Notes: generated from the sequence alone by a model not told the origin. Positions 8,881 through 45,915 are shown, numbered from the stretch's first letter. The stretch: DNA of 64,000 bases from Sideroxydans sp. (GCA_029850585.1 JARCRQ010000012.1:6130-70129), one strand, 5' to 3'. Numbers and translations: made by a program.

Positions 8881-9489
8881 ATGACTAAAAAAATTCTAGT
8901 GTGGGACGTGCCCACGCGGGTGTTTCATTGGCTGCAAGCCTTGTCTTTTTTGGGTGCGTATCTCACTGCTGATTCCGAAAAAACCCGCGAGATACACGTC
9001 ACGCTGGGCTTTATTTTGTTCGGCTTAATTGCCTTTCGTTTGGTGTGGGGGGTTGTTGGCAGCAAGCACGCGCGCTTTAGCTCGTTTATTTTTCATCCCG
9101 CCACCGTCATCACTTATGTGCGCTCGCTGTTCAAAAATGATGCGCAACATTTTGTCGGTCACAACCCCATCGGCAGCATTGCGATTTGGTTATTACTCGG
9201 CATGGGCATCGGTCTTGGTGTGACGGGCGTGCTGTTGCTGCAAGACGACGTAGCAGACAGCGTAGTCACCATCCACGCTTATCTCACCAACGGCATGTTG
9301 GTGGTGATTGCGGGGCATTTGTTTGGTGTCGCGATGAGCAGTTTTTTGCATAAAGAAAACCTCGTGCGCGCCATGATTACTGGCTACAAAAAAGGGGCAG
9401 AACAACACGGCATCACCCACGGCTACGCTTGGTTAGGTGCGGCATTAGTCATCGCTGCTGCCGTGTTCGCCTATCTGTACAACCGCTAA
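8881..9489 (+). CDS. cytochrome b/b6-domain membrane protein
   Basis: VWDVPTRVFHW, IHVTLG, GHNPIG, AGHLFGV motifs. Confidence 0.9.
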   Translation: MTKKILVWDVPTRVFHWLQALSFLGAYLTADSEKTREIHVTLGFILFGLIAFRLVWGVVGSKHARFSSFIFHPATVITYVRSLFKNDAQHFVGHNPIGSIAIWLLLGMGIGLGVTGVLLLQDDVADSVVTIHAYLTNGMLVVIAGHLFGVAMSSFLHKENLVRAMITGYKKGAEQHGITHGYAWLGAALVIAAAVFAYLYNR

Positions 9490-9542
9490 TTTTTCACCGT
9501 ATTATTTTTTAATCAATGTAGTTTTTATCTGAAGGAAATCCT

Positions 9543-10154
9543 ATGAAACGCAATCACCCCTACAAGAAAATTGTAGCGAGCCTTTGTTTAGCATTGGCTT
9601 GTAATACCTCGTTCGCGGCGGACAGCACACTCGACTTGAGTTTGCCTGCTGCAAGTGCTAGCCCTAAATCGTTCATGCTCGCGTCTAACGACACGCAGCC
9701 TGCCAGTGTCAGCAGCGCAGCCCCTAAGGCAGAGTTTTCTGAACCTTGGGTGTCAGGCGACAAGCTGCATCAATACATGGGTTGGACGACGCTGGCATTA
9801 GTTGCCGCCACGGCTTTTAGCGCACCCGGGGAAGGCTGTGAAGTCAATTGCCCGCCGCCCTCACAACAGCCTCCGCGCCAAACCAATGGCGCGCACGCCA
9901 AGCTGGCAAAAGCGGCAGCGTTTATGGCAGCAGCAACCGTGACCTCTGGTTTGATTGACCATTGGGATGATTTTCACATGGAAGACGGCTTCACTGACCC
10001 CGACAATTTGCACGCCATGCTGGGCACGGCAGGCGCGTTGATGATGATGTACGCAGTAAATAAATCAGCGAATTCTAAAGTGCCTGTGAGCCATGCAGGG
10101 ATTGCCGAATTAGGCGGCGTAGCCATGGCGGTTGCGGTTAAATTGACTTGGTAA
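9543..10154 (+). CDS. hypothetical exported/membrane protein, possibly b561-like
   Basis: AGGA RBS, signal peptide, four hydrophobic helices each headed by His. Confidence 0.7.
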   Translation: MKRNHPYKKIVASLCLALACNTSFAADSTLDLSLPAASASPKSFMLASNDTQPASVSSAAPKAEFSEPWVSGDKLHQYMGWTTLALVAATAFSAPGEGCEVNCPPPSQQPPRQTNGAHAKLAKAAAFMAAATVTSGLIDHWDDFHMEDGFTDPDNLHAMLGTAGALMMMYAVNKSANSKVPVSHAGIAELGGVAMAVAVKLTW

Positions 10155-32283: not shown

Positions 32284-34266
32284 ATGGCAAACAACGCACT
32301 GAGCAGAAAACTAAAAAAACTAAGTGAGGGCATCCCCTTATTTCGCGCCTTACCGGGTACCAAAGAATTAAAACTGTTGGCAACGGCGTTGTTTTTCACC
32401 CTAGTGATTACCTTGGTTACGGGGTTTTATGCCAACCGAGGCGCAAGCCGTATTACTGAATACGCGCTGATTGCGACCAACGTGGAATTGTTTACCGAGC
32501 GTCTGTCTACCGCAGCCAAAATTGCCGTAACGGGAAATAGCGAAGCGTTTGATGATTTGGATGCCGCACGCATCAGTTTGATTGAAAACTTAGCCACACT
32601 CGATAAAGGTAAAGGCAATATGGCGGCGACGTTTGGTCGTCCCCGCGTGGTACTGGATGCGGCGTTAATCAACGCCAACAAAATCGACACCGATGCCATG
32701 CTGATTTCCAATGGTCGCGCCGCGCTGGTAACTTTATCGCGTTCGATTGAGGCGATTAGTTTGGGCGATACCGAATTCCGTAGCTTGCAAGAGCAGTTAC
32801 GCAATAGCGTGAATCATGATTTAGCCAGCACCTTCCAATTATCCGTGGTGCAAATTGCGCGTGATGCCGCGTATTTGCTGGGTTCTAGCTTGAGCTTGGA
32901 ACAACTGGCGCAACTCGGTATCGACACTTACGCCGCCGAAGCCGCCTTAGCCGCGATGCCTGCGGGCGACCCGACCGTACAGCGCGCTGCTGAGTTGTTT
33001 GAACCGTACCGCAGCGCGGTGGAAACCTTGGTTGGACAATCGCGTCGCTTGGTGGAAGCCAAGGCCGCGCTGGTTGAGCTGGAGCAAGGCTCTGGCAAGC
33101 TGATTAAACAAAGTCAAGAGTTGCGTACCCTGTACCAAGCCAGCTTGCTGACCAAAGGCTTAGGGATTGCGGCGATTGTGTTCGCGCTGCTCACTTTGAT
33201 TTTCTTGACCATGCTGATTCGCGTGTACTTCGCCGACGTCAAACATGCCGCCGCACGCGAACGCACCATTAACCAAACCAATCAGAACGCGATTCTGTTG
33301 CTGATGAACGAATTGAGCGATTTGGCGGATGGTGATTTGACCGTTAAAGCGACGGTGGGTGAACAAATTACGGGGGCGATTGCGGACTCGGTGAATTACA
33401 CCGCTGAAGAATTGCGCAAACTGGTCGCGGGGATTACCAATGCGGCGTTGCGAATGGGGCAAGCCACCCAGCAGGCGGATAACATTTCTAAAGATTTATT
33501 GTTAGCGGGTCAAAAACAAGCCCATGAAATTCAAGATACCGAAGAAGCGGTACAGCTGATGGCGAAGTCTATTGCCGAGGTCGATAGCTCCGCGACCAAA
33601 GCGACCCGCGTGGGTAATCAAACTTTGGCAGCGTCTGAACAAGGCGCGCTGGCAGTGCGGAACGCGATTGCAGGTATGGACTCGATTCGCGAGCAGATTC
33701 AAGAAACGGCGAAACGAATTAAACGTCTGGGTGAAAGCTCACAAGAAATTGGTGAAATCGTGGATTTGATTTCGGACATTACCGAACAAACCAACGTGCT
33801 GGCGTTGAACGCAGCGATTCAAGCCGCCTCGGCGGGTGAGGCAGGACGCGGCTTCTCGGTGGTTGCGGAAGAGGTGCAACGCTTGGCGGAACGTTCCGCC
33901 GAGGCGACCAAGCAGATTGGTGCGCTGGTTAAAACCATTCAAAGCGATACTTACGATGCGGTGGCGGCGATGGAAACCAGTACCGTCGGGGTGGTCGATG
34001 GGGCGAAGTTGGCGGATGCGGCGGGACAATCGTTGCAAGAAATTCAACTGGTGTCGAAAGAGCTGGCTGCCTTGATTAACAGTATTTCGGTGACCACTCA
34101 AGTGCAGACCGACATGGTGAGTGAAGTGTCTAGCAGTATGCGCGACATTTTGACCATTACGGGACAAACCACCGAGGGTACGCGCCAAACGGCGGTGTCG
34201 GTTGCGCAGTTAAATACCTTGGCGAGCGAATTGAGCGCGTCGGTCGCAGGCTTTAAGGTCGAGTAA
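32284..34266 (+). CDS. pilJ: methyl-accepting chemotaxis protein PilJ
   Basis: [23 protein letters not shown]; start moved to MANNAL with GGAG RBS. Confidence 0.92.
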
Positions 34267-39992: not shown

Positions 39993-40082
39993 ATGGGCGC
40001 AAGCACACACATCAACAGCTAAGCGCGGTTTTAATTCCGAGCCGACTAGCAAATGCTGATACTGCGCGACGTTGGTCGTACC

Positions 40083-40191
40083 AAAAGGAAAAGCCCGACA
40101 GCTTGCGCTATCGGGCTTTGGATACAGATTCAGCCTTTCGGCTTTATCTTTATTGTAGCAACGGCTCTCACCCCGGATGAACTACTACAAC
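40083..40191 (-). ncRNA. tracrRNA
   Basis: Anti-repeat 40152-40185 (UAGUUCAUCCGGGGUGAGAGCCGUUGCUACAAU), then an AGCC-GAAA-GGCU hairpin and terminator AAAGCCCGAUAGC-GCAA-GCUGUCGGGCUUU; -10 GATAAT at 40204-40199. Ends are estimated. Confidence 0.88.
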
Positions 40192-40217
40192 GGGGTGGAT
40201 TATCAGGGAGAACACGC

Positions 40218-43200
40218 ATGGCTAGCAAGCATAAAAATTTAGGCGCACTGACTTTCGGACTCGACATCGGCATCGCCTCGGTGGGCTGGGCGGTGTTGGG
40301 CGAGAACCGTATTATTGATTTGGGCGTGCGCGCTTTTGATAAAGCGGAAACCGCCAAAGAAGGCGAATCGCTTAATCTGGCACGACGCTCTGCGCGCTTG
40401 TTGCGCCGTCGTTTGCGTCGCCGCGCATGGCGGCTCACCAAGCTCAACCGATTATTCAAACGCGAAGGGCTGATTGCACACCCCTTAGCCCTGCGCAGCC
40501 CATTTACCCAATCGCTTTGGCAACTGCGCGTTGCCGCGCTGGATCGAAAACTGAATGTCGAAGAATGGGCGCGCGTCATTCAACACTTATGCAAACATCG
40601 CGGCTTTTATTGGATTAGTCGCGCCGAAGAAAAGGCGGCAGAAGGCCATAGTAAAAGTGAAGGCGGCAAGGTCAAGCAAGGACTAGCTGGCACGAAGCAA
40701 AAGATGCAGGAGAATAACTACCGCACTGCCGCAGAAATGGTGTTGACTGAATTCCCCGATGCGCAGCGCAACAAGCAAGGCGACTACAGCAAAGCCCTTT
40801 CGCGGGTGTTACTGAGCGAAGAATTTGCCTTGCTGTTTCAGCGTCAACGCGAATTGGGCAACCCACACACCAGCACTGAATTTCAAGAAAAGATACTCGG
40901 CAACGGCGATAAAAAAAGTGGCTTGTTCTGGCAACAAAATCCTGCTTTGTCGGGTGCAGCATTACTCAAAATGCTCGGTAAATGTACCTTTGAAAAAAGC
41001 GAATATCGCGCGCCGAAAGCTAGTTTCACCGCTGAACGCCACGTCTGGCTGACGCGCTTAAATAATCTGCGTATCGTAGTGGGCGGCACAACTCGTTCGT
41101 TGAATGACGCGGAGCGACGCACCGCTCTGCCGTTGCCTTATTTACAAGCGGGTGACTTGAGCTACAAACAGTTGGGTAGTGCTTTAATCAAGGCGAATCT
41201 GTTAGATAAAGACCGCTTCAAATTTACGGGGCTGGTTTACTCCAACAAACAATCTGCCGACGAAAAAACTAAAGACCCCGAAACCACAACGCTGTGCAAA
41301 CTTCCCGCTTGGCAAACTTTGCATAAAACCTTGAAAGACGCGGGGCTGGAAAGCGAATGGCAACAGATTGCTAGTGATGCGTTGCAAGGCAAGTCGCAAC
41401 TGCTGGACGACATCGCTTGGGTGTTGAGCGTTTACAAAGAAGATACCGAAGTCGAAGCCGAATTGCGCAAGTTAACATTGCCGAATAAAGACAAGCTGGT
41501 GCAGGTGTTGAGCTATGTGAGCTTCGATAAATTTAGCAATCTCTCGCTCAAAGCATTACGCCAAATCGTGCCATTGATGGAACTCGGTCAGCGTTACGAC
41601 GAAGCCGTTGCCAATATCCCCGAATATGGTCATCACAGCCAATTGCATGTGGTCGGTACGGGTGAGCACAAATACCTACCGCCGTTTTACAAAGAGCGCG
41701 ACAAAGACGGGCGCATGGTGTTCGACGAGGACATGGATATACCGCGTAATCCCGTCGTGCTGCGCGCGCTCAATCAAGCACGCAAAGTGGTCAATGCGCT
41801 CATCAAAGAGTATGGCTCGCCGCATGAAGTACATATCGAAATGGCGCGGGACTTATCGCGACCATTGAAAGAACGGCTCGAAATTAAAAAAGAGCAAGAA
41901 GGCTATCGCGACCGTAACGAAAAAGCCAAAACCGACTTCGCCAGCGACTTCAATATTGTTGGCGCGGTCAAAGGCAAAGAGTTTGAAAAATATATGCTGT
42001 ATCGCGAGCAACAAGGCAAGTGCGCTTACTCCGTCGAAGCGATGGACATCAACCGTTTGTTTGAGCTGGGCTATGTGGAAATCGACCATGCCCTGCCTTA
42101 TTCGCGCAGTTTTGACGATAGTAAAAATAATCGCGTATTGGTTTTGGCACGAGAGAATCGCAACAAAGGCAACCAGACTCCTTACGAATATCTGGATGGC
42201 AAAAGCGATAGCGCACGCTGGCGGCAATTTGTCGCGTTTGTCGAAGGTAATAAAACCTATCGGCAAGCTAAACGCAGCCGCTTATTGCGCAAAGATTTTG
42301 GTGCAGATGAAGCCAAAGGATTTCGTGAGCGCAATCTCAATGACACACGCTATATCTGCAAATTTTTCAAAAACTATGTCGAGCAATATTTGCAACTGCA
42401 TGAAGACAGCGAGGCGAAAAGATGCGTGGTGCTAAGTGGGCAGATGACTTCATTTTTGCGCGCCCGTTGGGGCTTGGTCAAAGTACGCAGCGATAGCGAC
42501 AGACATCACGCGCTGGATGCCGTGGTGGTCGCTGCGTGCAGCCACAGCATGGTGAAACGCTTGTCCGACTATTCGCGCCGCAAAGAGTTGCAGCAAGTCC
42601 GCGAGGGCTTTGTTGATGTAGATACGGGCGAGATTGTGAATCCCGCGATGTTCCAACAGTTGCACGAACACTTTCCCGACCCGTGGCAAAATTTTCGCGA
42701 TGAAGTGCAGTTACGTTTGAACATCGACGATGCCACTTTACTGCGCAGCGAAATGGAAAAATTCGGCACGTATTCCGATGCCGCACTGCAAGCCCCCCGT
42801 CCGCTATTTGTCTCGCGCGCACCGCAACGTCGTAACAGCGGTGCGGCGCATAAAGACACCATTTACGCGCAACCAGAACGCTTGGTTGCACAAGGCGGTG
42901 TGACGCAAAAAGTATCGCTCACCAGCTTGACTTTGAAAGACCTCGACAAGCTCATTGACCCGCACCGCAACGAAAAACTTTACGCCGCGATTCGCGCACG
43001 TTTGGAACAACACGGTGGTAAAGGCGACAAGGCATTTCCCGCCAACAACCCACTGCGTAAGCCTGACAGCGAGGGCAATCCAACAGGCCCGATCGTGCGC
43101 GGCGTGACGATGGTGATAGACAAACTTTCGGGTATCCCGATACGCGGCGGTATTGCTAAAAACGACACGATGCTGCGAGTGGATGTGTTCACTAAAGCGA

Positions 43201-43574
43201 ACAAGTTTCATCTCGTGCCGGTGTATGTGCATCACCGCGTGACGGGCTTGCCGAATCGGGCGGTTGTGCAAGGTAAAGATGAAAGCGAATGGACGCTTAT
43301 CGACGACAGTTTTGAATTCTGTTTCTCGCTTTGTCCAAATGACTTTGTGCGGGTAACCATGAAGAAAGAAACTCGCGAGGGTTACTACGCTAGCACCCAT
43401 AGGGGCACTGGGTGCATCAACCTCTGGGCGCATGACCGCAATCTCAGCGTAGGCAAAGCGGGAAGCATCGAAGGAGTGGGTGTCAAAACCGCATTAAACA
43501 TCGAAAAATTTAACGTCGATGTCCTCGGCAACTGTTACCCCGCACCACCGGAACAGCGTCGTGACTTGGCGTAG
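40218..43574 (+). CDS. cas9: type II-C Cas9, 1118 aa
   Basis: RuvC-I GLDIG, Arg-rich bridge helix, RuvC-II HIEMAR, HNH EIDHALP...NRNKGN, RuvC-III HHALDA. Real start is MASKHK with AGGGAG RBS. Confidence 0.98.
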   Translation: MASKHKNLGALTFGLDIGIASVGWAVLGENRIIDLGVRAFDKAETAKEGESLNLARRSARLLRRRLRRRAWRLTKLNRLFKREGLIAHPLALRSPFTQSLWQLRVAALDRKLNVEEWARVIQHLCKHRGFYWISRAEEKAAEGHSKSEGGKVKQGLAGTKQKMQENNYRTAAEMVLTEFPDAQRNKQGDYSKALSRVLLSEEFALLFQRQRELGNPHTSTEFQEKILGNGDKKSGLFWQQNPALSGAALLKMLGKCTFEKSEYRAPKASFTAERHVWLTRLNNLRIVVGGTTRSLNDAERRTALPLPYLQAGDLSYKQLGSALIKANLLDKDRFKFTGLVYSNKQSADEKTKDPETTTLCKLPAWQTLHKTLKDAGLESEWQQIASDALQGKSQLLDDIAWVLSVYKEDTEVEAELRKLTLPNKDKLVQVLSYVSFDKFSNLSLKALRQIVPLMELGQRYDEAVANIPEYGHHSQLHVVGTGEHKYLPPFYKERDKDGRMVFDEDMDIPRNPVVLRALNQARKVVNALIKEYGSPHEVHIEMARDLSRPLKERLEIKKEQEGYRDRNEKAKTDFASDFNIVGAVKGKEFEKYMLYREQQGKCAYSVEAMDINRLFELGYVEIDHALPYSRSFDDSKNNRVLVLARENRNKGNQTPYEYLDGKSDSARWRQFVAFVEGNKTYRQAKRSRLLRKDFGADEAKGFRERNLNDTRYICKFFKNYVEQYLQLHEDSEAKRCVVLSGQMTSFLRARWGLVKVRSDSDRHHALDAVVVAACSHSMVKRLSDYSRRKELQQVREGFVDVDTGEIVNPAMFQQLHEHFPDPWQNFRDEVQLRLNIDDATLLRSEMEKFGTYSDAALQAPRPLFVSRAPQRRNSGAAHKDTIYAQPERLVAQGGVTQKVSLTSLTLKDLDKLIDPHRNEKLYAAIRARLEQHGGKGDKAFPANNPLRKPDSEGNPTGPIVRGVTMVIDKLSGIPIRGGIAKNDTMLRVDVFTKANKFHLVPVYVHHRVTGLPNRAVVQGKDESEWTLIDDSFEFCFSLCPNDFVRVTMKKETREGYYASTHRGTGCINLWAHDRNLSVGKAGSIEGVGVKTALNIEKFNVDVLGNCYPAPPEQRRDLA

Positions 43575-44466
43575 CGTGGTTATTTCGCGTCCCGCTAAGT
43601 TGCGGCGCGAACAGTTTCGGTTGGCTATCGAGCAGGAGCAAACCGCGCTCGTGCCGTTCGAGGACATCGCGGTGATTGTGTTGAATCATCGCGAAATCAC
43701 GCTGACGCATTCAGTGCTGTCGGCTTGCGGCGAATATGGCATCAGCCTGTTTGCCACAGGCGATACGCATCACCCTAGCGGCGTATTTATTCCCTTTTTA
43801 CCGCACTCGCGCGCGACTAAATGGATGCGTTTGCAACTGGCTTTGCCACGTCCCATCGCCAAGCAAACTTGGGCTGCTATCGTGCGGCAAAAAATCACCA
43901 ACCAATCGTTATGCTTACAGCTCTTGGGGCGCGAGGGCGAGGAGCGGATGGATGCGTACTTGCGCCGCGTGCGCTCTGGCGATCCTGGCAATTTAGAAGC
44001 CCTCGCCGCCGCTTATTATTTTCCGCAACTATTTGGCAAAGGCTTTTATCGCGACCAGCCGCGCTTTGCCAATGCCGCGCTCGATTATGGCTATGCGATA
44101 TTGCGCGGCACGATTGCACGCGGACTGGTGGCGCATGGCTTGTTGCCCGCCTTGGGAATTTTTCACGCCAGTGAGCAAAACGCTTTCAACTTAGCCGACG
44201 ACCTCATTGAACCGTTCCGCCCCGTGGTGGATTTATTCGTCGCGCAATATGCGTATGCGCAAGACGGCGAACTGCGCCCGCCCGACAAAGTGGCGTTAGT
44301 TGGCTTGCTCAATGTCGATGTGTTAATGCCGCGCGGCAAGATGTCGGTGCTGTCCGCCATCGAACACAGTATTGAGAGTTTGGCGCGGATTTATAACGGC
44401 GGCTCTGAGGCGTTATTGGAATTGCCCACGCTGATTAAGCTGGAGCAGCACCGCTTAGAGTGCTGA
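43561..44466 (+). CDS. cas1: CRISPR integrase Cas1 (type II)
   Basis: NAALDYGYAILR, GIFH, NLADDLIEPFRP motifs; GTG start (MTWRSV). Confidence 0.96.
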   Translation: MTWRSVVISRPAKLRREQFRLAIEQEQTALVPFEDIAVIVLNHREITLTHSVLSACGEYGISLFATGDTHHPSGVFIPFLPHSRATKWMRLQLALPRPIAKQTWAAIVRQKITNQSLCLQLLGREGEERMDAYLRRVRSGDPGNLEALAAAYYFPQLFGKGFYRDQPRFANAALDYGYAILRGTIARGLVAHGLLPALGIFHASEQNAFNLADDLIEPFRPVVDLFVAQYAYAQDGELRPPDKVALVGLLNVDVLMPRGKMSVLSAIEHSIESLARIYNGGSEALLELPTLIKLEQHRLEC

Positions 44467-44467
44467 C

Positions 44468-44800
44468 ATGAGCGAGGAGACACGACGGTTTATGCGCTTA
44501 CTGGTGTTGTTCGATTTACCTGTGGTAAGCAAAGCCGACCGCCGCGCCTACACTTTGTTTCGCCGCTTCTTATTGAATGACGGCTACGACATGATTCAGT
44601 TTTCCATCTACGGACGCATCGTCAACGGCAACGATGCCTTAGACAAACACATGAAACGCTTGGTGAATAATTTGCCGCCCGACGGCTCGGTACGCTGTTT
44701 AAGCGTCACCGAAAAGCAATATGCCAGCATGAAACTGCTAGTTGGGCTGCCACTTTTCCAAGAAAAAGCCCTCAAAGTGAATCAAATGCTACTGTTTTGA
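44468..44800 (+). CDS. cas2: CRISPR-associated Cas2
   Basis: VLFDLP, FRRFLLNDGY, QFSIY motifs. Confidence 0.96.
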   Translation: MSEETRRFMRLLVLFDLPVVSKADRRAYTLFRRFLLNDGYDMIQFSIYGRIVNGNDALDKHMKRLVNNLPPDGSVRCLSVTEKQYASMKLLVGLPLFQEKALKVNQMLLF

Positions 44801-44863: not shown

Positions 44864-45771
44864 AGTGTAGTTCATCCGGGGTGAGAGAGGGAGCTACAAC
44901 ATGCGGCTCTGCGTTGGCGATTGTGCAAGGAGTGTAGTTCATCCGGGGTGAGAGAGGGAGCTACAACAAAATGTGCGAACGCACGTCTTGCCCTGTGAGT
45001 GTAGTTCATCCGGGGTGAGAGAGGGAGCTACAACGGTGGTCGTCAACCCAATATCGAGCAACGTAGTGTAGTTCATCCGGGGTGAGAGAGGGAGCTACAA
45101 CTACGAACCCTGCTAGTGCTGTTACTGCTACAGTGTAGTTCATCCGGGGTGAGAGAGGGAGCTACAACTGGAATACCGCACGGCGGCGGAAGAGGCGGAG
45201 TGTAGTTCATCCGGGGTGAGAGAGGGAGCTACAACCGTGGTCGCACCGTCTGCGTGTCTAGCATCAGTGTAGTTCATCCGGGGTGAGAGAGGGAGCTACA
45301 ACGACCCCGCTTATTCTGCCGTTAATGTAGCGAGTGTAGTTCATCCGGGGTGAGAGAGGGAGCTACAACTGAACATTTGGTAATTTGTCGCCGCCTTGAA
45401 GTGTAGTTCATCCGGGGTGAGAGAGGGAGCTACAACCTACAACGCTTACGACACTAAGCAAATTTTAGTGTAGTTCATCCGGGGTGAGAGAGGGAGCTAC
45501 AACGCAGAAGACGGGCGCGAGGCGGGGGCTAAGAGTGTAGTTCATCCGGGGTGAGAGAGGGAGCTACAACACAGGGTTGCCTTTAGTGTCGGGTATAGAC
45601 AGTGTAGTTCATCCGGGGGGAGAGAGGGAGCTACAACCCGTTACGGGGTTGCTGTTACTAGGTGCGCAGTGTAGTTCATCCGGGGTGAGAGAGGGAGCTA
45701 CAACAACTCAAGCGGCGGCTAGGCAAGACTAAACAGTGTAGTTCATCCGGGGTGAGAGAGGGAGCTACAAC
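44864..45771 (-). CRISPR. CRISPR array: 14 repeats of 37 bp, 13 spacers of 30 nt
   Basis: Repeat on the crRNA strand is GTTGTAGCTCCCTCTCTCACCCCGGATGAACTACACT with an exact 67-bp period; one variant at 45619 (repeat 12). Orientation inferred from the tracrRNA anti-repeat and the Neisseria-like repeat. Confidence 0.99.
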
Positions 45772-45915
45772 CTAATGCGCGACCCACAAGGGGTCACGAA
45801 TTACGTTGCCGCTTACGCGGGTTTGGCAAAAAAATGGGGCGAAACCACATCGAATTCATGCCACCTTCTTCAATGCAAAGCTAGCTCAACAGCATTCTTA
45901 TAAACGATGCAAAGA

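Follow-up and report, generated by a model that had tools for sequence, protein, structure and literature searches.

Spacers of an Nme-like type II-C CRISPR-Cas locus point to the pI/Zot gene of an inovirus lineage of the host's own genus

CRISPR targeting of inoviruses, that by type II-C systems included, is already documented, and no new mechanism is put forward here. The catalogue of Roux et al. 2019 (PMC6813254) holds 1,150 inovirus-matching spacers from 42 bacterial families, 3 CRISPR types and 8 subtypes; inovirus self-targeting was found to be rare, and Neisseria meningitidis, a type II-C host, was an outlier for inovirus-derived spacers. The locus described here agrees with that catalogue in its inovirus-matching spacers and in the rarity of self-targeting. 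However, Roux et al. 2019 (PMC6813254) required 0-1 DNA mismatch, and their approach would have missed spacers 8 and 9 of the present array, whose origin can be recognised only after translation. The string 'Gallionell' is absent from their main text. What differs here is the host, which belongs to an environmental iron-oxidiser lineage, together with a phage lineage that is absent from reference virus collections.

The DNA that was analysed, hereafter the window, is a stretch of 64,000 nucleotides deposited as Sideroxydans sp. (GCA_029850585.1 JARCRQ010000012.1:6130-70129). It holds a complete Nme-like type II-C CRISPR-Cas locus composed of a tracrRNA, cas9, cas1, cas2 and an array of 13 spacers (Table 1). 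We consider it very probable that, within this Nme-like II-C locus, the pI/Zot gene of an inovirus infecting the genus of the host gave rise to spacers 8 and 9, and that the lineage of this inovirus accounts for five or six of the 13 spacers.

Table 1. Features of the CRISPR-Cas locus and spacers with an assigned or possible origin (positions counted from the first letter of the window)
Feature	Position	Strand	Description
tracrRNA	40085..40190	-	anti-repeat AGTAGTTCATCCGGGGTGAGAGCCGTTGCTACAAT, small hairpin, terminator hairpin, then T-run
cas9	40218..43574	+	1118 aa from ATG; HNH, RuvC_III and Cas9_RuvC domains
cas1	43519..44466	+	PF01867
cas2	44468..44800	+	PF09827
CRISPR array	44864..45771	-	14 repeats of 37 nt (crRNA sense GTTGTAGCTCCCTCTCTCACCCCGGATGAACTACACT), 13 spacers of 30 nt
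spacer 1	44901..44930	-	Rep_trans gene; + strand text is the coding sense, CGSALAIVQ
spacer 3	45035..45064	-	inovirus Rep_trans gene, GGRQPNIEQR
spacer 4	45102..45131	-	possible pVI-like minor coat gene, opposite orientation; reverse complement VAVTALAGFV
spacer 6	45236..45265	-	76-aa ORF directly upstream of inovirus Rep, RGRTVCVSSI
spacer 8	45370..45399	-	inovirus pI/Zot gene, motif EHLVICRRL(D)
spacer 9	45437..45466	-	inovirus pI/Zot gene, motif YNAYDTKQI(F)

The type II-C locus and its array

The locus is similar to the II-C system of N. meningitidis in its Cas9, in repeats beginning GTTGTAGCTCCC, in an array that is transcribed opposite to the cas genes, in the duplex-plus-bulge architecture of the tracrRNA pairing and in the large inovirus share of its spacers, which in N. 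meningitidis concerns the Nf/MDA filamentous prophages. Unlike in N. meningitidis, the host belongs to a lineage of environmental iron oxidisers and is probably a Gallionella, the tracrRNA gene lies upstream of cas9 and divergent from it, and the repeat is 37 nt long. Residues 11-1105 of Cas9 gave a full-length match to the N. meningitidis Cas9 structures 6JDQ, 6KC8 and 6JDV (E = 5.5e-250). ORFs and Pfam matches around the locus revealed neither csn2 nor cas4 beside the array, and the locus is flanked by a ChpA-like kinase gene and a photolyase gene. The identical Cas2 protein is present in two other assemblies and one sequencing run. For cas1, the gene callers used on the sister contigs place the start 42 nt later, which gives a protein of 301 aa. 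It should be pointed out that the longest cas9 ORF opens at 40053 and overlaps the tracrRNA gene of the opposite strand (40053-40217); the real start is the ATG at 40218 (MASKHKNLGALTFGLDIGIASVGW).

When the crRNA repeat and the tracrRNA were joined and folded, a long duplex with an internal bulge and two 3' hairpins was obtained (-87.6 kcal/mol, z = -12.8). The crRNAs are therefore transcripts of the - strand, and the + strand text of each spacer is the complement of the guide. Hence, in the target the PAM is expected, as its reverse complement, directly 5' of the stretch that corresponds to the + strand text of the spacer. Nme-like II-C systems make their crRNAs independently of processing, from promoters located within the repeats; here, a consensus scan for promoters found none, and the repeat ends in ...TGAACTACACT with a possible -10 element, TACACT.

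The array is the sole one in the host genome. Its period of 67 nt was divided into a repeat of 37 nt and spacers of 30 nt because, on the + strand, every one of the 13 stretches between repeats has A as its last letter. The sister strain GCA_049685855.1 (L012 2398-3640) has an identical Cas2 and the same repeat, and none of its 18 spacers is common to the window array. Likewise, three strains with 100% identical Cas2 and the same repeat (that of the window, L012, and L013 from GCA_054333635.1) have no spacer in common at either end of the array, the numbers of spacers compared being 13, 18 and at least 2, respectively. Spacers are thus replaced quickly in comparison with the divergence of the cas genes.

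The sister strain and contigs from other runs share with the window a conserved stretch of ~70 nt past the last repeat (45772-45840, CTAATGCGCGACCCACAAGGGGTCACGAATTACGTTGCCGCTTACGCGGGTTTGGCAAAAAAA). This stretch lies upstream of the array in the crRNA direction and is a leader candidate; in the sister strain, the repeat adjoining it is the only mutated one. Outside this group of strains, the plasmid NZ_CP117194.1 of Acidovorax temperans in PLSDB carries at 33550-33590 a sequence 91% identical to the CRISPR repeat, and a repeat of related II-C type is thus found on a betaproteobacterial plasmid.

Spacers 8 and 9 and the pI/Zot gene

The initial annotation had read the + strand of spacers 8 and 9, in frame 2, as EHLVICRRL followed by GA (D or E) and as YNAYDTKQI followed by TT (F or L), respectively, and both readings were borne out with exact coordinates. 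The M13 pI motifs that it had named are indeed present in the translation of V00604 3196-4242, with AEHVVYCRRLD at residue 140 and LYNAYDTKQAF at residue 200. Spacer 8 aligns with residues 141-149 of M13 pI (EHVVYCRRL, 7/9 identical) and spacer 9 with residues 201-209 (YNAYDTKQA, 8/9 identical). In an alignment of 8 pI proteins including that of M13, both motifs are located in conserved blocks downstream of Walker B. M13 pI has a length of 348 aa and would be ~40% identical overall to the source gene of the two spacers, whose nearest relatives have 284-327 aa.

In a comparison with six-frame translations of inoviruses totalling ~1.85 million residues, spacers 8 and 9 gave perfect 9-mers with scores of 48-49, while 130 shuffled spacers gave scores of at most 43 and the other spacers scored 30-39, one low-complexity proline artefact excepted. 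Both peptides are exact in a single protein (P0038), 59 residues apart, and in the DNA encoding it 26/30 positions agree with spacer 8 and 24/30 with spacer 9. Meanwhile, the peptide of spacer 8 is identical in many PF05707 proteins and that of spacer 9 in L003, L136 and L142. With identical peptides in Zot proteins of inovirus contigs, the earlier proposal that the two spacers come from one gene, pI/Zot, stood up. The codon-degenerate peptide patterns also retrieved small IMG/VR contigs with ORFs scoring 90-111 bits on PF05707 (Zot), in which GEHLVICRRLDR and LY.AYDT.Q.F are separated by 47-62 residues. In all close relatives, protospacer 9 is situated 177 nt downstream of protospacer 8 on the same strand.

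At the DNA level, the closest matches were again located in pI genes of inovirus relatives and reached 26/30, for spacer 8 in L136 and L144 and for spacer 9 in the G243 prophage from the host's genus. All 20 DNA differences between the two spacers and their four best relatives (L136, L144 and L142 among them) are at third codon positions. Such third-position-only differences with unchanged peptides indicate a diverged homologous coding sequence, so the true phage is an unsequenced relative.

Neither spacer 8 nor spacer 9 had a protospacer with 0-1 mismatch, the usual rule of assignment (PMC6813254), in the collections scanned. The exact 30-mers were absent from IMG/VR, JGI metagenome contigs, GTDB species genome contigs and the host assembly. 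When up to 3 mismatches were allowed for spacer 9, none of 300 genomes from the host's family contained it, and its codon-degenerate pattern had no match in the JGI metagenome contigs. Codon-degenerate scans led to pI genes of distant relationship, from IMG/VR, a Vibrio olivae prophage and a Methylophagaceae MAG, all at 25/30 or less, and 80 pI relatives retrieved from IMG/VR by alignment gave at most 24/30. When the whole array was compared by blastn, only noise was obtained with the INPHARED phages, and only the similar CRISPR repeat of an Acidovorax plasmid with the PLSDB plasmids. IMG/VR held no close relatives of the G243 pI, and neither exact spacer 3 nor the degenerate pattern of spacer 6 was found there. 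The Logan contigs of the probable source run and its sister runs, which break at CRISPR repeats, gave no related phage at 80% identity or more when compared with the array and the G243 prophage.

The assignment of spacers 8 and 9 thus rests on protein-level identity together with the pattern of synonymous differences, and this evidence supports their derivation from the pI/Zot gene of an inovirus outside the reference collections. Accordingly, translated search can assign spacers from conserved phage genes without a DNA match, and standard pipelines that allow 0-1 mismatch miss them.

The inovirus lineage and its host

Matches to the same lineage were obtained for other spacers as well. Spacer 3 is exact, 30/30, at 4436-4465 of L137 (ENA ERZ25039499 contig_70783), in the Rep_trans gene; it also matches at 28/30 in L145 and L146 ('Sideroxydans sp.' MAG contig) and at 27/30 in G091, a genome of the genus. 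Spacer 1 lies in frame in a Rep_trans ORF, at 28/30 in L145 (1465) and 27/30 in L137 (4777). For spacer 6, 26/30 nucleotides and 10/10 residues are matched in frame at L145 250-279, and all four differences are third-position ones. In a control with shuffled spacers on 18 kb, no match exceeded 21/30. A translated comparison of all 13 spacers with the prophages of the genus flagged spacers 1 and 3 (Rep_trans, in frame) and spacer 4 (pVI-like) with scores of 39-41, at a per-spacer shuffle P of 0.002-0.004 and with host flanks, the control, scoring at most 34. Spacers 1 and 3 were then confirmed by their DNA matches. Spacer 6 was missed by this comparison and found at the DNA level.

The match of spacer 4 is to TAVTAIAGFV (8/10 residues, in frame) in a 108-aa DUF5455-like ORF of the G147 prophage. 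As the nucleotide match is only 17/30 (shuffle P ~0.004 per spacer) and the hit did not recur in other relatives, spacer 4 is tentatively placed with a pVI-like gene of the same lineage. Spacer 5 also reached a high BLOSUM score (PPLPPPCGIP) and was rejected, the match being proline-rich, of low complexity and in a non-coding frame.

The array of the sister strain GCA_049685855.1 carries spacers against the lineage as well: its spacer 11 matches the Rep gene of L137/L145 at 30/30 and its spacer 17 the Walker B region of pI at 25/30. At least five, perhaps six, of the 13 spacers in the window therefore derive from one inovirus lineage. Nearly half of one array is thus devoted to a single inovirus lineage, a pattern that was earlier highlighted mainly for N. 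meningitidis. Several spacers together with the second strain support repeated exposure to the lineage. The spacers may stem from at least two mosaic phages and not from one, because L137 is 30/30 to spacer 3 but 24/30 to spacers 8 and 9. Exact protospacers inside an inovirus element were found for spacer 3 of the window and spacer 11 of the sister strain, not for spacers 8 and 9.

Related prophages are present in further species of the host's genus, in which 17 of 151 genomes contain PF05707. In the G243 prophage, spacer 9 is matched at 26/30 and, at a distance of 177 nt, spacer 8 at 22/30; this prophage encodes on one strand Rep_trans, Phage_coatGP8, a 605-aa pIII-like adsorption-like protein, a DUF5455 minor protein, Zot and Secretin (pIV). 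Its pI matches PHROG 1675, 'protein I of M13', at 2.8e-101 and passes PF05707. The order in L137 (Rep, gp8, pIII-like, pVI-like, Zot) is the same without the secretin. The gene order of the lineage thus reads Rep_trans, gp8 coat, pIII-like, pVI-like and pI, with a pIV secretin added in some relatives. This gene content supports the source element being an inovirus (Tubulavirales), for which filamentous ssDNA virions and chronic infection of the host are predicted.

When the G243 pI was compared with 5.8 billion proteins, dozens of metagenomic relatives with 55-78% identity were obtained, one of them annotated as 'zonular occludens toxin domain-containing protein [Gallionella sp.]'. Unannotated prophages and metagenome contigs are thus the only sources of the lineage, which at the DNA level is unrelated to the phages of the reference collections. 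The inovirus had been called probably undescribed. This holds insofar as no exact protospacer occurs in the collections, but relatives were already present as unannotated prophages in Gallionellaceae MAGs.

Within the host's genus, the prophages closest to the spacers are those with the pI of G243 (spacer 9, 26/30) and the Rep of G091 (spacer 3, 27/30). Among 317 genomes of the family, DNA search detected the Rep lineage only in the host's genus. Judging from these prophages, the inovirus lineage infects the host's own genus. The host itself is probably a Gallionella; the 90%-identity cluster of the window photolyase includes a member named 'Gallionella sp.', which makes the identification indirect but consistent. 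The locus is present in metagenome runs from mine drainage, groundwater, freshwater and drinking water. An uncultured inovirus lineage is thereby tied to Gallionella-type iron oxidisers by two independent lines, namely the prophages of the genus and the CRISPR memory of two strains.

Target strands, PAM and routes of acquisition

If the system is active, as we infer, the crRNAs would pair with the tracrRNA and guide Cas9, which would cut the double-stranded replicative form or else an integrating or integrated copy of the phage. Cutting by Cas9 would block chronic infection as well as lysogeny. Such a block would be in keeping with the host assembly (1.97 Mb, 95.7% complete, 101 contigs), in which no Zot gene, no Rep_trans gene of the lineage and no protospacer were found, an absence that is not absolute.

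Three protospacers are identical to their spacers at 28/30 positions or more; on the side where the orientation of the tracrRNA places the PAM, they carry CGCTGAGT, TGATGTTT and CGACGTAA, all with G at +5. The G at +5 fits a putative PAM of the N4G-type, Nme-like kind, three sites being too few to define it, and the PAM-side flanks of more diverged relatives are mixed and inconsistent.

For 5/6 assignable spacers, or 6/8 when the sister strain is included, the guides are the complement of the coding strand, and it is this strand that an inovirus packages; the bias is not significant (two-sided binomial P ~0.2-0.3). PAM-independent cutting of ssDNA by NmeCas9 has been reported ('DNase H' activity). 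The array might thus be biased in orientation, with crRNAs complementary to the packaged (+) ssDNA, which has the sense of the mRNA, and the Nme-like Cas9 could then destroy the entering strand before the replicative form arises. We regard this as very unlikely; if it were true, an orientation bias for ssDNA targeting would represent a dedicated anti-inovirus mode of type II-C immunity.

The route by which the spacers were acquired can be approached through their targets. They might have been taken from prophage-bearing chromosomal DNA of related strains, received via transformation or conjugation, and the array would then mainly limit gene flow between strains, a function reportedly proposed for the N. 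meningitidis II-C system by Zhang et al. 2013. The closest matches indeed all belong to prophages that are integrated in genomes from the host's genus or family, and L137 has host-like flanks, the right one being 89% identical to the host contig C29. However, the assignable spacers all map to phage genes (Rep, its upstream ORF, pVI-like and pI) and none to host flanks, so that we hold the chromosomal route to be unlikely. It should be further pointed out that uptake from chromosomal DNA and uptake during infection are not mutually exclusive, and that the same immunity results from both.

The neighbouring position of spacers 8 and 9 raises the question of priming, in which cleavage by Cas9 at a first target would have freed DNA ends and Cas1-Cas2 would have taken up a nearby fragment. 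Priming of acquisition by Cas9 cleavage was reportedly shown for type II-A by Nussenzweig et al. 2019; we know of no case shown for II-C. The likeness to the type II-A system of S. pyogenes consists in neighbouring spacers that map close together on the target, whereas the subtype differs and II-C lacks Csn2. All close relatives have protospacers 8 and 9 on one strand at a distance of 177 nt, and the targets of spacers 1 and 3, which are one position apart in the array, are separated by 341 nt. Yet in an array of 13, any two given spacers would be neighbours by chance with P = 0.15, and when six sites are placed at random on a circle of 6.5 kb, the observed confinement to two windows of 1.25 kb arises with P ~0.2. 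Detection is moreover biased toward the conserved genes pI and Rep, so that other spacers may lie anywhere on the phage, and the sister strains have no spacer in common from which the polarity of acquisition could be read. Priming is therefore compatible with the data and unsupported by them, and we give it about as little credence as the chromosomal route.

The idea that the pI resemblance of spacers 8 and 9 is a chance artefact of translation has nothing in its favour except the absent exact DNA match and deserves practically no credence, since both spacers show perfect nine-residue identities to a single protein, correctly ordered and spaced, their DNA differences are without exception third-position ones, and shuffled spacers never reach such scores. 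The initial annotation had likewise judged such a pair very improbable by chance. The derivation of the two spacers from an inovirus pI/Zot gene is thus retained as the preferred reading.

Some observations concern the DNA that neighbours the prophages. Host contig C29 is, at ~9171-10153, 87-90% identical to the DNA past the Zot end of the L137 prophage (9111-9239 and 9569-9900), and weaker matches to it are found beside the prophages in L138, L146, L147 and G243. Within this region of C29 are a hydrophobic mini-ORF of 26 aa, a terminator hairpin and two small genes resembling a toxin-antitoxin pair. The region would be either something retained by the CRISPR-bearing host, namely a phage remnant or a regulatory module, or a cassette common to host and phage. 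A 27-nt exact match between C29 and the phage contigs was considered as an attachment site and rejected, the match being the terminator hairpin. Spacer 18 of the sister strain is 23-24/30 to the C29 region. In L139 (6540-12358), a metagenomic inovirus prophage with a close pI (P0028) directly adjoins a JetA-JetB-JetC (Wadjet-like) cluster.
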